From a virus: 40,697 nucleotides of DNA. This document shows positions 1-40,697 of this stretch, one piece after another. Each line of letters begins with the position of its first letter. The first letter of the stretch is position 1. The stretch lies in UHGV virus genome UHGV-1333064; one strand, written 5' to 3'. The notes beneath the pieces were generated by a model that was not told where the DNA came from, did no database searches, and saw nothing but the letters and a program-made list of their open reading frames with translations. A program made the position numbers and the translations under genes.

Positions 1-121
1 GTAGCGGCAGGAGTCTATGAACACGTTTCAGTGAAACCATTTAAGAAAGTGTTCTAATTTATTAGAAATTTGCACTTAAATCAAAAAGTTACGGACAATT
101 CAACCACCAATCAATAAATTA

Positions 122-175: not shown

Positions 176-724
176 TCAGCTAGCTGGAAACTTTTTATAC
201 AGAGTTGAGAGCCCTACTCCATACGTTTTTGATACGCTTTGTCGTGATTCACCGGTTGCCATCCGCTCCCCCATTTCCCTCCATTGCTCATCCGTGAACT
301 TAGGCCTGCGACCACCAACTCGCCCTTTTGCCCTGGCTACGGCCAGCCCTGCTAAGGTACGTTCGCTATTAAGATCAGATTCATATTGTGCTGCGGAAAG
401 GATGTTACGAAAGTTATAGCGGCCGCTGGCTGTTTTGAGATCCACGCCATCGGTAATACTGCGGAAGTTGATACCCTTTTCCTGTAACTGCTGGAACATC
501 AACAGCGCATGCAGAACGTTGCGGCCTATCCTGTCCAGCTTCCAGACCACCAGTTCATCCCCCGGCTGCATAGTGGCGATCAGCCGTTTTAGAACCGGCC
601 GATTCGATTTCCTCCCGCTGGCATGCTCTTCAAAAATTTTCTCACAACCCGCTGACTTGAGCGCCGTTAGTTGCAATTCAGTGTCCTGGTGGTTTGTTGA
701 TACTCGGGCATAACCGTAAATCAT
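176..724 (-). CDS. serine recombinase, DNA invertase (Hin/Gin/Cin/Pin family)
   Basis: Track ORF 176..883, trimmed to the internal Met of MIYGYARVSTNHQ (ATG 722-724) with AGGAG 7 nt upstream. Resolvase-type N-terminal catalytic Ser motif (YARVST), VWKLDRIGR, and a C-terminal HTH (LSTLYKK), as in DNA invertases. Confidence 0.9.
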   Translation of the reverse strand: MIYGYARVSTNHQDTELQLTALKSAGCEKIFEEHASGRKSNRPVLKRLIATMQPGDELVVWKLDRIGRNVLHALLMFQQLQEKGINFRSITDGVDLKTASGRYNFRNILSAAQYESDLNSERTLAGLAVARAKGRVGGRRPKFTDEQWREMGERMATGESRQSVSKTYGVGLSTLYKKFPAS

Positions 725-728
725 GGGA

Positions 729-755
729 TTTCTCCTGTTATGAAAACAGGAGAAA
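729..755 (-). promoter_or_regulatory. perfect 11-bp palindrome with 5-nt loop that contains the invertase Shine-Dalgarno
   Basis: TTTCTCCTGTT (729-739) / AACAGGAGAAA (745-755), loop ATGAA. On the minus-strand mRNA the 3' arm carries AGGAG, 7 nt before the invertase ATG. Confidence 0.35.
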
Positions 756-776
756 CGGCGAAGCATCACCAGATTT

Positions 777-1211
777 TTGATGGTTATAAAAAAGGTTGGT
801 TTGGGAGAAGGTTCGGCATTACCCGTTGGCGTGCCTGTTCCGTGGCCTTCCGCCACTCCGCCAACAGGCTGGCTGAAATGCAACGGTGCCGCTTTTTCTG
901 CTGAAGAATACCCGGAACTGGCGAAGGCTTATCCGACAAATAAAGTGCCTGATTTACGCGGTGAATTTATTCGTGGCTGGGATGATGGTCGAGGGATAGA
1001 TAGTGGCCGTGCATTGCTATCTGCGCAGGGAGGAGCAATCCAATCTCATACGCATTTATTAGCTGTCCGAGTTAGCGGGGCAACATCAGCTACCAGCGCA
1101 GATGATGTATTAAAAACCGGAGGCACCTCCAGTAGGGAAACTAATGCGACGGGTGGGACTGAAACAAGGCCGCGCAACATTGCATTTAACTACATTGTAA
1201 GGGCAGCATGA
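777..1211 (+). CDS. alternative tail-fibre C-terminal segment (silent orientation; expressed only after inversion)
   Basis: Track ORF begins at TTG. Protein has a tail-collar-like motif (PTGWLKCNGAAFSAEEYPELAKAY ... VPDLRGEFIRGWD). The frame is open across crossover site 784-809 and both junctions encode GLGE, so inversion would fuse it in frame to the constant N-terminus of the fibre gene. Confidence 0.55.
   Translation: MMVIKKVGLGEGSALPVGVPVPWPSATPPTGWLKCNGAAFSAEEYPELAKAYPTNKVPDLRGEFIRGWDDGRGIDSGRALLSAQGGAIQSHTHLLAVRVSGATSATSADDVLKTGGTSSRETNATGGTETRPRNIAFNYIVRAA
784..809. repeat. invertase crossover site, hix/gix-like (copy next to the invertase gene)
   Basis: TTATAAAAAAGG TT GGTTTGGGAGAA: 26 bp with 12-bp half-sites around a 2-bp core. 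The reverse complement of the right half (TTCTCCCAAACC) closely matches the left half of the site at 2581-2606, in inverted orientation. Same architecture as gix/hix/cix sites. Confidence 0.6.
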
Positions 1212-2235: not shown

Positions 2236-2880
2236 TTAATACCCTACTGCAATATAAAAAACTGATTCACCAGCGTCCTGAGAACCTACCCCCGGAACGC
2301 CAGACCAGGCTTTGTTAATGAATGCAAAACCGGTATTACTCAGATCAGATGCTCTGTACATCGGGCTGAACATCCAGTAGTTGGCTCCATATGTTTGTCC
2401 GAAAACAATGCCATAGCACTGATTTGTAAATGGCGTAGAAAATAATTTTCCACCAGTACCAGCGATAGTCCCGAATCGCATCTGGAACCCATTCGGGAAA
2501 TTAATTCCGCCTGCCGGTGAAGACCAGTAAGACATATCAGGTATCTGATTATCTCCTGTGCCCACATCCCTTTTCGCCGCTTCTCCTAAACCAAGGTTTG
2601 TGGTAATCGCTGTCGCCAGCTTTGCCACCAGTCCATCAACGTCACCATCATCGAGCGCGTCCAGTTCGGCGTTCGCGATAAACTGCCCCAGTACAGCCGC
2701 CATCGTCGACGGTTGGCGCAGCGCTTTACTGACCTGTGCGCTGGATGCTTTACCCGAGGAGAATCCTTTCTTCAGTGCGGTTAGCGTCTCCCATTCCTCC
2801 TGCGAGGTAACATTTGCATTAGCATCTGTCGCAAACGCTTTAAAATCATTAGTTCCAGCCATTAAAGTAATCTCCCCCAT
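2236..2880 (-). CDS. tail fibre protein (constant N-terminus of about 95 aa joined to the current variable C-terminus)
   Basis: 214-aa ORF after the I-like gene. Crossover site 2581-2606 lies inside it and encodes ...AITTNLGLGE...; downstream sequence is Gly-rich, typical of a fibre tip. Confidence 0.75.
   Translation of the reverse strand: MGEITLMAGTNDFKAFATDANANVTSQEEWETLTALKKGFSSGKASSAQVSKALRQPSTMAAVLGQFIANAELDALDDGDVDGLVAKLATAITTNLGLGEAAKRDVGTGDNQIPDMSYWSSPAGGINFPNGFQMRFGTIAGTGGKLFSTPFTNQCYGIVFGQTYGANYWMFSPMYRASDLSNTGFAFINKAWSGVPGVGSQDAGESVFYIAVGY
2581..2606. repeat. invertase crossover site, hix/gix-like (copy inside the tail-fibre gene)
   Basis: TTCTCCTAAACC AA GGTTTGTGGTAA; resembles the invertase-family consensus (TTCTC..AAACC..GGTTT) and is inverted relative to the 784-809 copy. 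Confidence 0.6.
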
Positions 2881-27798: not shown

Positions 27799-28236
27799 TT
27801 ACGCAACCCTCCCGAAGTAATCACCTGAGTAGCGAACTTCACGGAGTTGCACGCCGTTTTGCACAGCAAATGCCTGGCTGTATTCGATGAGACTGGTCAT
27901 GCGACGGATGCCCATCTTCGCAGTGCTTTCCCGGATGGCGCAGAACTCCCCTTCCAGACCCGGCACCACTTCACCAGGCTTACCGGTGGCAATGGCATGG
28001 CCTGAGACATACAGGACTTTCCATGAAGCGAGGTCGCGCGACTTGCCAGCCCATTGCAATTGCTTCGCTGTATCGCCACAGAGAGCGTGGAAGAGGTCGT
28101 TTTGGGCGAGAGTGCGGTCAGCCTCAGAAAACTTCACCACGAGCGGCAGAGCGTCGTTAACAGGCAGCTTCCTGATGTAGTCGATGAGGTTATCGCGAAC
28201 GCGTTCGTCGCGGAGGTAGAAAACAGGCTGTTTCAT
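27799..28236 (-). CDS. ninB: recombination protein NinB
   Basis: Track ORF trimmed to MKQPVFYLRDERVRDNLIDYIRKLP...; strong recalled similarity to lambda NinB (Orf). Confidence 0.8.
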   Translation of the reverse strand: MKQPVFYLRDERVRDNLIDYIRKLPVNDALPLVVKFSEADRTLAQNDLFHALCGDTAKQLQWAGKSRDLASWKVLYVSGHAIATGKPGEVVPGLEGEFCAIRESTAKMGIRRMTSLIEYSQAFAVQNGVQLREVRYSGDYFGRVA

Positions 28237-28449
28237 ACGCCACCTCCGAGAGGTAACGCAGAATACAGAAAATCGCAGGTGCATTTCTGCATCTGTGACA
28301 AGGTGAGGAGTTCAGATTGTGGTCGCATTTAAGTCCCCTTAAATGCGAAGAAGTCTGCCAGGGTTGTTCAGGCCGCTGGCAGATTTATTATGGCTCGTTG
28401 ATAGTGTTTTATCAAACGTTGCTTGACGTTTAGTTATGCGTCGAATGGG

Positions 28450-40158: not shown

Positions 40159-40697
40159 ATTACGGATTTGTAAGTGTTTGCGTTGAGCAATTCAATGAAG
40201 CGGTTAAGCTGCCACCCGCACACAATCCAGCATCACGAATTTGGCAGCGCCCGTTCCTTAAATGGGCTGGCGGCAAATATTCGCTGCTGCCGGAACTGGA
40301 TCGCCTGATCCCCGCAGGGAAACGCCTTATTGAGCCTTTTGTGGGTGGCGGCTCGGTGTTCCTTAACTCAGACAAGCACGAACGCNNNNNNNNNNNNNNN
40401 NNNNNNNNNNNNNNNNNNNNNNATCAGATGCTGGCGGTGGTCCCCGACTCGGTGATCTATGAGGCAATGAAGGCATTCAGGCATCTGAATGATGCCGAAA
40501 ACTACACGGTAATTCGTGAAGCATTCAACGCGCAGCGGCTGGATGCGGTCGAGCGCGCAGCAGCGTTCCTTTACCTCAACCGGCACTGCTTCAACGGGCT
40601 GATCCGTTATAACCTGGACGGTTTTTTTAACGTCGGCTTTGGGAAATATAAAGCGCCATATTTCCCGGAAGAAGAGATCAGGGCATTTAAGCGGAAG
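40155..40697 (+). CDS. dam: DNA adenine methyltransferase, Dam family (interrupted by the N gap, 3' end outside the window)
   Basis: Read by eye: N-terminus ...RPFLKWAGGKYSLLPELDRLIPAGKRLIEPFVGGGSVFLN (KWAGGK and FxGxGS SAM motifs); after the gap FLYLNRHCFNGLIRYNLDGFFNVGFGKYKAPYFPEEE, closely parallel to E. coli Dam. Frame is continuous if the gap is truly 37 nt. Confidence 0.8.
   Translation, partial: MNYGFVSVCVEQFNEAVKLPPAHNPASRIWQRPFLKWAGGKYSLLPELDRLIPAGKRLIEPFVGGGSVFLNSDKHERXXXXXXXXXXXXXQMLAVVPDSVIYEAMKAFRHLNDAENYTVIREAFNAQRLDAVERAAAFLYLNRHCFNGLIRYNLDGFFNVGFGKYKAPYFPEEEIRAFKRK
40386..40422. other. run of 37 N (assembly gap or masked bases) inside the methylase gene
   Basis: Literal n characters in the sequence. 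Confidence 0.98.

Follow-up and report, generated by a model that had tools for sequence, protein, structure and literature searches.

A conserved leader hairpin as a putative translational brake on a PinL-type prophage DNA invertase

We analysed a viral DNA of 40,697 nucleotides, UHGV virus genome UHGV-1333064 (hereafter the window, i.e. the whole stretch), and focused on the leader of its PinL-type DNA invertase gene, in which a perfect inverted repeat places the Shine-Dalgarno (SD) sequence within one arm of an 11-bp stem. We propose, with a probability of about 0.6, that this hairpin attenuates translation of the invertase in cis and also dampens the effect of read-through from the late genes; the attenuator is most likely constitutive, and not a filter on foreign transcripts alone in the manner of IS10. 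Tail-fibre-switching invertases act at very low frequency, and the means of keeping their level low are poorly documented. A conserved anti-SD hairpin would explain this simply, at the post-transcriptional level, for one lineage of enterobacterial prophages that is widespread. It would also protect the recombinase from strong late transcription during lytic growth, and would offer an easily mutated handle for tuning inversion frequency as well as a testable hypothesis for the Gin, Cin and Pin systems.

Structure and conservation of the leader hairpin

The gene and the elements of its leader all lie on the minus strand:

176-724, minus strand: DNA invertase gene, 182 amino acids (aa), PinL type, with Pfam Resolvase and HTH_7 domains (open reading frame, domain search)
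722-724, minus strand: invertase start codon ATG, 7 nt past AGGAG
729-739, minus strand: hairpin 3' arm with the SD AGGAG at 736-732 (sequence, fold, conservation)
740-744, minus strand: hairpin loop UUCAU (DNA TTCAT), YUNR-like; U744, U743 and A741 are invariant, 742 and 740 vary
745-755, minus strand: hairpin 5' arm, the anti-SD strand, non-coding; 10 of 11 positions essentially invariant among 48 distinct relatives
about 756-771, minus strand: small upstream hairpin GGUGA-UGCU-UCGCC with a folding free energy (dG) of -6.7 kcal/mol, followed by the U-rich 5' arm (fold; 761-757 invariant)

The 5' arm (755-745) is UUUCUCCUGUU as RNA, or TTTCTCCTGTT as DNA, and pairs perfectly with AACAGGAGAAA at 739-729; a repeat finder gave 100% complementarity over 11 nt each, 5 nt apart. 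Across 790-700, the minus strand reads CUGGUGAUGCUUCGCC G UUUCUCCUGUU UUCAU AACAGGAGAAA UCCC AUG AUU UAC. The initial annotation had described a perfect 11-bp stem with a 5-nt loop, carrying in its 3' arm an AGGAG that lies 7 nt before the invertase ATG. Coordinates, sequence and spacing all proved exact: AGGAG (736-732) is wholly inside the 3' arm and the gap to ATG (724-722) spans 731-725. Folding of the 5' untranslated region, which the same annotation had put forward as a check, was carried out with ViennaRNA and returned the expected stem, extended in the minimum free energy (MFE) fold by a twelfth pair, G756.U728. The large hairpin by itself has a dG of -15.4 kcal/mol, and the 91-nt leader reaches an MFE of -28 kcal/mol (z -4.6), a stability equalled by none of 200 shuffles.

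According to 300 first-order Markov simulations of the same size and composition, the expected number of perfect hairpins (stem of 11 bp or more, loop of 3-10 nt) is 0.06 per window, and two were observed. Opening the invertase ribosome site (-15 to +3) costs 17.2 kcal/mol, i.e. rank 3 of 116 candidate starts in the window (median 8.4), a rank that is approximate since the candidate set includes spurious open reading frames (ORFs). When the 45 nt upstream alone were shuffled, with the ribosome site and the coding sequence left intact, the opening cost was 6.9 +/- 1.7 kcal/mol vs 16.5 observed (z 5.5, 0 of 200); the high cost is therefore due to the upstream sequence specifically. The Markov expectation and the upstream-only shuffle, together with the conservation reported below, rule out a chance palindrome.

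Relatives were drawn from genome contigs, IMG/VR, phage records, Escherichia coli genomes and metagenomes, and were selected by their coding region alone (start MIYGY..., at least 60% aa identity, intact across the first 180 codons). The resulting sample comprised 48 distinct leader-plus-gene sequences with 68-100% aa identity. Mean nucleotide diversity in this sample was as follows:

5' arm: 0.037
3' arm: 0.036
Loop: 0.18
SD-ATG spacer: 0.25
Upstream flank: 0.32
Four-fold-degenerate sites (30, none invariant): 0.51

The conservation of the 3' arm could be explained by its being the SD. The non-coding 5' arm, judged from its diversity, is under strong purifying selection, for which pairing with the SD is the obvious candidate cause. 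Coding constraint does not account for it, because the ORFs crossing the 5' arm are not conserved. Indeed, the plus-strand ORF at 740-904 was rejected since its ATG, located in the loop, is lost in many relatives (740 and 742 vary), and a conserved upstream ORF or N-terminal extension was rejected since the in-frame ATG766 is restricted to the sub-lineage of the window and the spacer length varies. As a separate observation, the invertase frame is open upstream to 883 (724-883, minus strand), and initiation at an in-frame GTG-ATG (769-764) would lengthen the protein by 14 residues (MLRRFSCFHNRRNP); this extension occurs only in the window-type sub-lineage, the frame being broken in relatives with a 5- or 6-nt spacer.

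The large helix is paired in 98.5% of the cells of a 22-sequence alignment, and RNAalifold recovered the same helix without guidance. Its basal pair, 755/729, is U-A in 18 sequences, U.G in one and C-G in three, and the G756.U728 extension is present in most of them. Loop variants among relatives are TTCAT, TTCAC, TTTAC, TTTAT and one 6-nt TTCACT. The relative L245 (68% aa identity) has kept the stem with the 6-nt loop, the U.G basal pair and an entirely different upstream leader, from which the small hairpin is missing. In the small hairpin, whose loop contains the candidate -10 hexamer GATGCT (767-762), the pair 768/759 is U.G or C-G, and the plus strand does not form this structure. Two mismatches were encountered in the large stem, i.e. 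a single C.A in L032, which is a counter-example, and an A.C in L208, which is uninformative because the invertase is there a truncated pseudogene. Additional covariation was sought among viral contigs retrieved by DNA pattern, relatives of L245 and metagenome contigs, and this search yielded only L245 and L208.

This pattern of conservation favours a sense-strand RNA hairpin over a DNA binding site, because the U.G and G.U pairs (the basal pair of L245, G756.U728 and U768.G759) can pair on the invertase-sense strand only, and because L245 keeps the stem despite its 6-nt loop and unrelated leader.

Transcript starts and the predicted effect on translation

The cost of exposing the SD was modelled for transcripts with successive 5' ends. 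It amounts to 12-13.6 kcal/mol for 5' ends from 900 down to 755, is still 9 kcal/mol with a 5' end at 752 and drops to about 1.5-3 kcal/mol with a 5' end at or below 749; the opening energy of the ribosome site holds at 16-17 kcal/mol for 5' ends from 900 to 755. The initial annotation had predicted an occluded ribosome-binding site in transcripts starting upstream, late read-through included, and the modelled SD is buried for any 5' end of at least 752, the hairpin being present in every such transcript. It had also reasoned that a start within the 5' arm would abolish the hairpin; the principle stands, with the threshold corrected from about 745 to about 749. Its emphasis on late read-through was right as to occlusion and too narrow as to focus, since the predicted mRNA of the invertase itself also carries the full hairpin.

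The search for a promoter involves the following features:

785-790, minus strand: candidate -35 TTTATA, within the outer crossover half and separated by 17 nt from the downstream GATGCT (position weight matrix, PWM, scan)
784-809, minus strand: invertase-proximal crossover site TTCTCCCAAACC-AA-CCTTTTTTATAA, 26 bp (repeat comparison)
2581-2606, plus strand: distal crossover site TTCTCCTAAACC-AA-GGTTTGTGGTAA, in inverted orientation (repeat comparison)

A sigma-70 PWM scan of ten PinL-lineage leaders revealed one promoter-like arrangement that is positionally conserved, in 8 of the 10, and that corresponds in the window to TTTATA-17-GATGCT (790-762). It combines TTTATA, TTCAAA, TTGATA or TTGTAA in the outer crossover half with, after 16-19 nt, a GAYNYT located in the small-hairpin loop. 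The motif scores weakly (5-9 bits) and is missing in the sub-lineages L004 and L245; among the -10-like columns, A766 is invariant, T762 occurs in 88% and 764/763 are free, followed by an invariant GC-rich TCGCC. The arrangement predicts a start at G756/T755, at the base of the large stem, so that the invertase's own mRNA would carry the whole hairpin at its extreme 5' end. The scan of these PinL-lineage leaders gave no -10-like hexamer at the position that initiation within the hairpin (at or below 749) would demand. Should selection act on the small hairpin as an RNA element in its own right, transcripts would begin further upstream and the large hairpin would still be part of the mRNA.

In the mechanism that we propose, the palindrome would operate as RNA, forming a hairpin on the sense strand within the leader of the invertase transcript, with the 5' arm as a dedicated anti-SD. 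Binding of the 30S subunit would be confined to rare openings of the stem of about -15 kcal/mol, and invertase translation would thereby be throttled. A rough estimate of this effect is a 10^2-10^3-fold reduction, obtained by applying the scaling of the RBS calculator to the gap of about 12 kcal/mol between the leader with the 5' arm and the truncated one; this empirical scaling is said to have been set by Salis et al. 2009 with a beta of about 0.45 mol/kcal. Scarce invertase would in turn make inversion of the tail-fibre segment infrequent, and a reduction of this order would suit an enzyme of which a few copies suffice. The hairpin would act on the invertase's own mRNA as well as on late-operon read-through during lytic growth (any 5' end of at least 752). 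Flush 5'-terminal stems protect mRNAs from 5'-end-dependent decay, and a start at 756/755 would create such a stem, which might shield the invertase mRNA likewise. In relatives, the DNA abutting the invertase-side crossover site is either the window from 797 onward or the inverted 2593 end; inversion would thus seem to occur in nature despite the brake, the comparison being blurred by cassette mosaicism.

Several points weigh against an attenuator. Covariation is minimal, with one compensatory pair that probably reflects one evolutionary event, and the whole-structure covariation score was matched by 4 of 500 column shuffles, in a control that is permissive according to the tool's own warning. 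Pairs that never vary number 9 of 12 without L245 and the L208 pseudogene and 8 of 12 with both, and the otherwise invariant stem could equally be explained by sequence-level constraints. A perfect palindrome is just as much a DNA feature, and three of the five loop bases are invariant, which a passive hairpin does not need. No such hairpin was found in invertases at 71-74% identity (L006-L011) or in several classical lineages. Under strict thermodynamics, a stem of -15 kcal/mol would leave essentially no translation. Finally, the promoter and its start site, the magnitude of the repression and its bearing on inversion frequency are all predictions from sequence.

Weighing of alternative explanations

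Fold-back inhibition of the IS10 type is an unlikely alternative. In this scheme the invertase promoter would fire within the hairpin (at or below 749), the native mRNA would be translated and late tail-fibre read-through alone would be silenced. The late genes run in the same direction as the invertase, on the minus strand, and no convincing terminator separates the two; a 5' end at or below 749 does free the SD. In the classical Din lineages (e14 pinE, Cartapus, Fels-2, D108 gin), moreover, an extended -10-like motif overlaps the arm that pairs with the SD or start codon, with a predicted start downstream. The mechanism itself is established for the IS10 transposase (Davis, Simons and Kleckner 1985), with analogues in IS3 and other IS elements, as cited in PMC13181058. 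In the present leader, however, about 761-754 (TCGCCGTT) is invariant and GC-rich, with no -10-like hexamer where one is needed, and the best conserved promoter candidate gives a start at 756/755. Moreover, the published K-12 table (Kim et al. 2012, PMC3415461, supplementary file 2) has no proximal start for e14 pinE (L184) and just two weak ones, of 4 reads each, which map 340 and 536 nt upstream. Both pinE starts fall inside the invertible P segment; part of pinE transcription may depend on the orientation of the segment.

The IS10 system and the attenuator proposed here have in common that a DNA-rearranging enzyme is kept rare, that an upstream segment pairs with the ribosome-binding site and makes translation poor, and that this guards against entering transcription. 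They differ in that the IS10 promoter starts downstream of the inhibitory segment, so that foreign transcripts alone are blocked, whereas the start predicted here includes the hairpin; the enzyme is a transposase in IS10, and here a serine invertase with a compact, perfect, local hairpin of 11-12 bp.

The palindrome might instead act at the DNA level, which we consider improbable, either as the site of a dimeric protein (an accessory or autoregulatory site of the invertase, as in res sites II/III of Tn3/gamma-delta, or a phage repressor site) or as an HU- or cruciform-assisted bend between the crossover site and the enhancer. The perfect inverted repeat lies 28 bp from the crossover site, its stem is sequence-invariant and not covarying, and the symmetric T-A to C-G change preserves the palindrome. 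In addition, the hexamer TTCTCC that opens both arms is shared with TTCTCCCAAACC and TTCTCCTAAACC, the inner halves of the crossover sites, and the two hexamers are 13 bp apart vs 14 bp in the crossover site. TTCTCC is, however, merely the complement of the SD (GGAGAA). The resemblance of the arms to the half-sites is limited to TTCTCC(T); they depart from them after 7 nt, without a 2-bp core, and no match to the crossover 26-mer was found with up to 3 mismatches allowed. A dimer site of fixed spacing would poorly accommodate a loop that differs among relatives in both sequence and length (5 or 6 nt), and both the U.G intermediate and G756.U728 break the DNA symmetry yet keep the RNA pairing. 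The leader stem of P1 cin is likewise unlike the cix half-sites. Two specific sites were tried and rejected, namely a LexA (SOS) box, the palindrome having CTG-N9-CAG (CTGTTTTCATAACAG) and not the required CTG-N10-CAG, and a Din-family crossover site, the palindrome spanning 25-27 bp with a 5-nt centre vs 26 bp made of two 12-bp half-sites and a 2-bp core.

Quite improbable, in our view, is a wider reading in which the hairpin is a regulated switch whose conserved YUNR-type loop (U744, U743, N, A741) docks a trans-acting RNA or protein, and in which it also represents a broader ancestral anti-SD element of Din-family invertase genes, located in the classical lineages within their own extended -10, so that self-initiated transcripts alone would be translatable. 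A switch in the narrower sense is very doubtful: a trans-acting RNA or protein (antisense RNA, small RNA on the 5' arm, or Com-like activator) would open or lock the hairpin and make invertase synthesis conditional, and the frequency of tail-fibre and host-range switching would then be conditional as well, and not constant. Invariant U744, U743 and A741 next to variable 742 and 740 fit the YUNR U-turn motif, reportedly typical of RNA-RNA recognition loops (attributed to Franch et al. 1999). A promoter-like TTGATA-16-AATCAT on the plus strand (697-724) points across the palindrome and away from the gene; an antisense RNA initiated from it would begin at about 731 and carry the complementary hairpin, and the codons beneath the -35 of the site (GTA TCA ACA) are unusually conserved at synonymous positions (about 90% fixed), those of Gly4, Arg7 and Thr15 varying freely. 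This site nevertheless scores 9 of 12, in a scan that found 5 in total vs 4.4 expected in shuffles, and its hexamers correspond, in reverse complement, to the conserved codons Met-Ile (Met1-Ile2) and Val-Ser-Thr (Val8-Ser9-Thr10). They also lie about 100 bp from the crossover core, the distance at which a Fis enhancer site is expected from Hin and Gin; the synonymous fixation could come from an antisense promoter or from a Fis enhancer. The window holds no further copy of the arm sequence, and no Rfam family matched: Rfam 15 covariance models gave nothing over 722-771 at E <= 1 and no window hit at the gathering score.

Termination or insulation, whereby the small GC hairpin (771-757) and the U-rich 5' arm would stop late read-through and the large stem would be secondary, is highly improbable: a terminator scan flags 771-756 with its TTTCTCCTGT tail and the small hairpin is conserved in most relatives, but its stem has merely 5-6 bp (dG -6.7) with an interrupted U tract, the scan found 3 such sites vs 3.2 expected in shuffles, and L245 retains the large hairpin while lacking the small one. 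The large hairpin as an intrinsic terminator was rejected, since it has no U tail on either strand: the sequence after it reads UCCCAUG (minus strand) or ACGGCG (plus strand).

Known systems, other invertase lineages and locus context

Sequestration of the SD by a leader hairpin, as in the attenuator that we favour, is a textbook mechanism; it is newly seen in this gene family, and the conceptual gain is modest. The initiation hairpin of the MS2 coat gene is reportedly SD-sequestering, a finding ascribed to de Smit and van Duin, and the mom gene of Mu has a translation-inhibitory stem that is relieved by Com. Like the invertase leader, both have a local stem whose 3' arm holds the SD, and expression levels are expected to track the stability of such a stem; the -15 kcal/mol found here lies at the very stable end of natural examples, and we know of no Com-like activator for the invertase hairpin.

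The element itself is present in the phi80 record (GenBank JX871397), as a repeat_region 'IR3' that denotes an 11-nt inverted repeat 5 nt upstream of the pinL start and differs from the window at the basal pair and the loop only. The record holds the label alone, with no function, RNA structure or link to a ribosome site. No paper was found that ties a leader hairpin to invertase translation, in a search whose coverage of the 1980s Gin/Cin/Pin literature was thin, so that an earlier mention is possible.

A pyrimidine-rich upstream segment that pairs with the SD and/or the start codon is also found in the leaders of P1 cin, e14 pinE and P2-like (Cartapus-type) invertases (e.g. ATCATCUCC...GGGGGAUGAU and GCUUGCUAU...AUAGUGAGC). 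These stems differ from that of the window in being shorter (6-9 bp) and imperfect, with loops of 7-13 nt; their wobbles pair on the sense strand only, and the statistics of the pairing are modest (p 0.01-0.04). The Cartapus/pinE element, [A/T]TCTCC[T/G]G-TTTT.AT-CAGG[A/G]G, has a CAGG-to-ATG distance of 16 nt, identical to that of the window, and looks homologous to the window hairpin, as judged from the shared TCTCCNG-TTTT.AT-CAGGNG. Classical Din genes (D108 gin, Fels-2, Cartapus type, e14 pinE; L098, L099, L101, L102-L181, L184) have in common a TGGCAT[C/G/T]AT (TGGCATNAT) at about -36 to -27. This motif is extended -10-like and doubles as the 5' arm that pairs with the SD or start codon, with a predicted start at about -20, i.e. 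downstream of the arm; such a layout would be a true IS10 architecture, which we regard as a lead and not as a result. Several lineages are devoid of such pairing, and an extension to all invertases was rejected, as L006-L011, L166, L174, L175, L178, L133 and L134 show no excess.

Regarding the locus, the window invertase is 100% identical to that of mEp237, and its N-terminus, MIYGYARVST, is typical of serine recombinases. Alternative C-termini of the tail fibre are encoded, along with assembly genes, in the invertible segment (797-2593, about 1.8 kb), which contains two oppositely oriented Caudo_TAP tail-fibre assembly genes and a Collar-domain ORF starting at the proximal site; on sequence grounds, the locus is an invertible tail-fibre system of the Gin/Cin/Pin type. 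Baseplate genes come next on the minus strand. As the late structural genes and the invertase are co-oriented, late transcription proceeds in the direction of the invertase. Positions 36-52 of the window match the phi80 attP core at 16 of 17 bases (ACACTTTCTTAAATGGT vs ACACTTTCTTAAATTGT), which makes the invertase the terminal gene at one prophage end; similarity to phi80 ends at base 36. The same invertase-plus-leader block is found as a relic beside attP in phi80 (pinL), HK225 and mEp237, and homology to the phi80/HK225 relic locus stops at the invertase-proximal crossover site. The block was matched in 472 of 5,426 complete E. coli genomes (about 9%).

The first 35 bp or so of the window (1-35) lie outside this end of the prophage, which is integrated at the phi80-type attachment site. 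A silent cassette encoding a tail-fibre C-terminus with a Collar domain (777-1211, plus strand) has its own TTG/ATG starts at 777-785, on the outer edge of the crossover site, and is thus an ORF in its own right. In L017-L096 and L185-L303, the outer half-site is identical (AACCTTTTTTATAA) and the inner half is highly variable among otherwise identical loci (CCAAACC, CGAAACG, CAAATCC, CCAAATG, TTAAAGC, CCAATTG, CATAGGA, etc.), a variety that points to numerous alternative cassettes, or to shuffling among multiple sites, within this prophage family.

Elsewhere in the window, the only other perfect 11-bp hairpin is located at 28323-28348 (TCGCATTTAAG-TCCC-CTTAAATGCGA). A candidate start some 90 nt away, at 28236 on the minus strand (28236-28215), has its GGAGG within a short CCTC-TCG-GAGG hairpin and shows the second highest ribosome-site opening energy of the window (18.0 kcal/mol). 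Near the right end, a run of 37 N (masked or unresolved bases) occupies 40386-40422.

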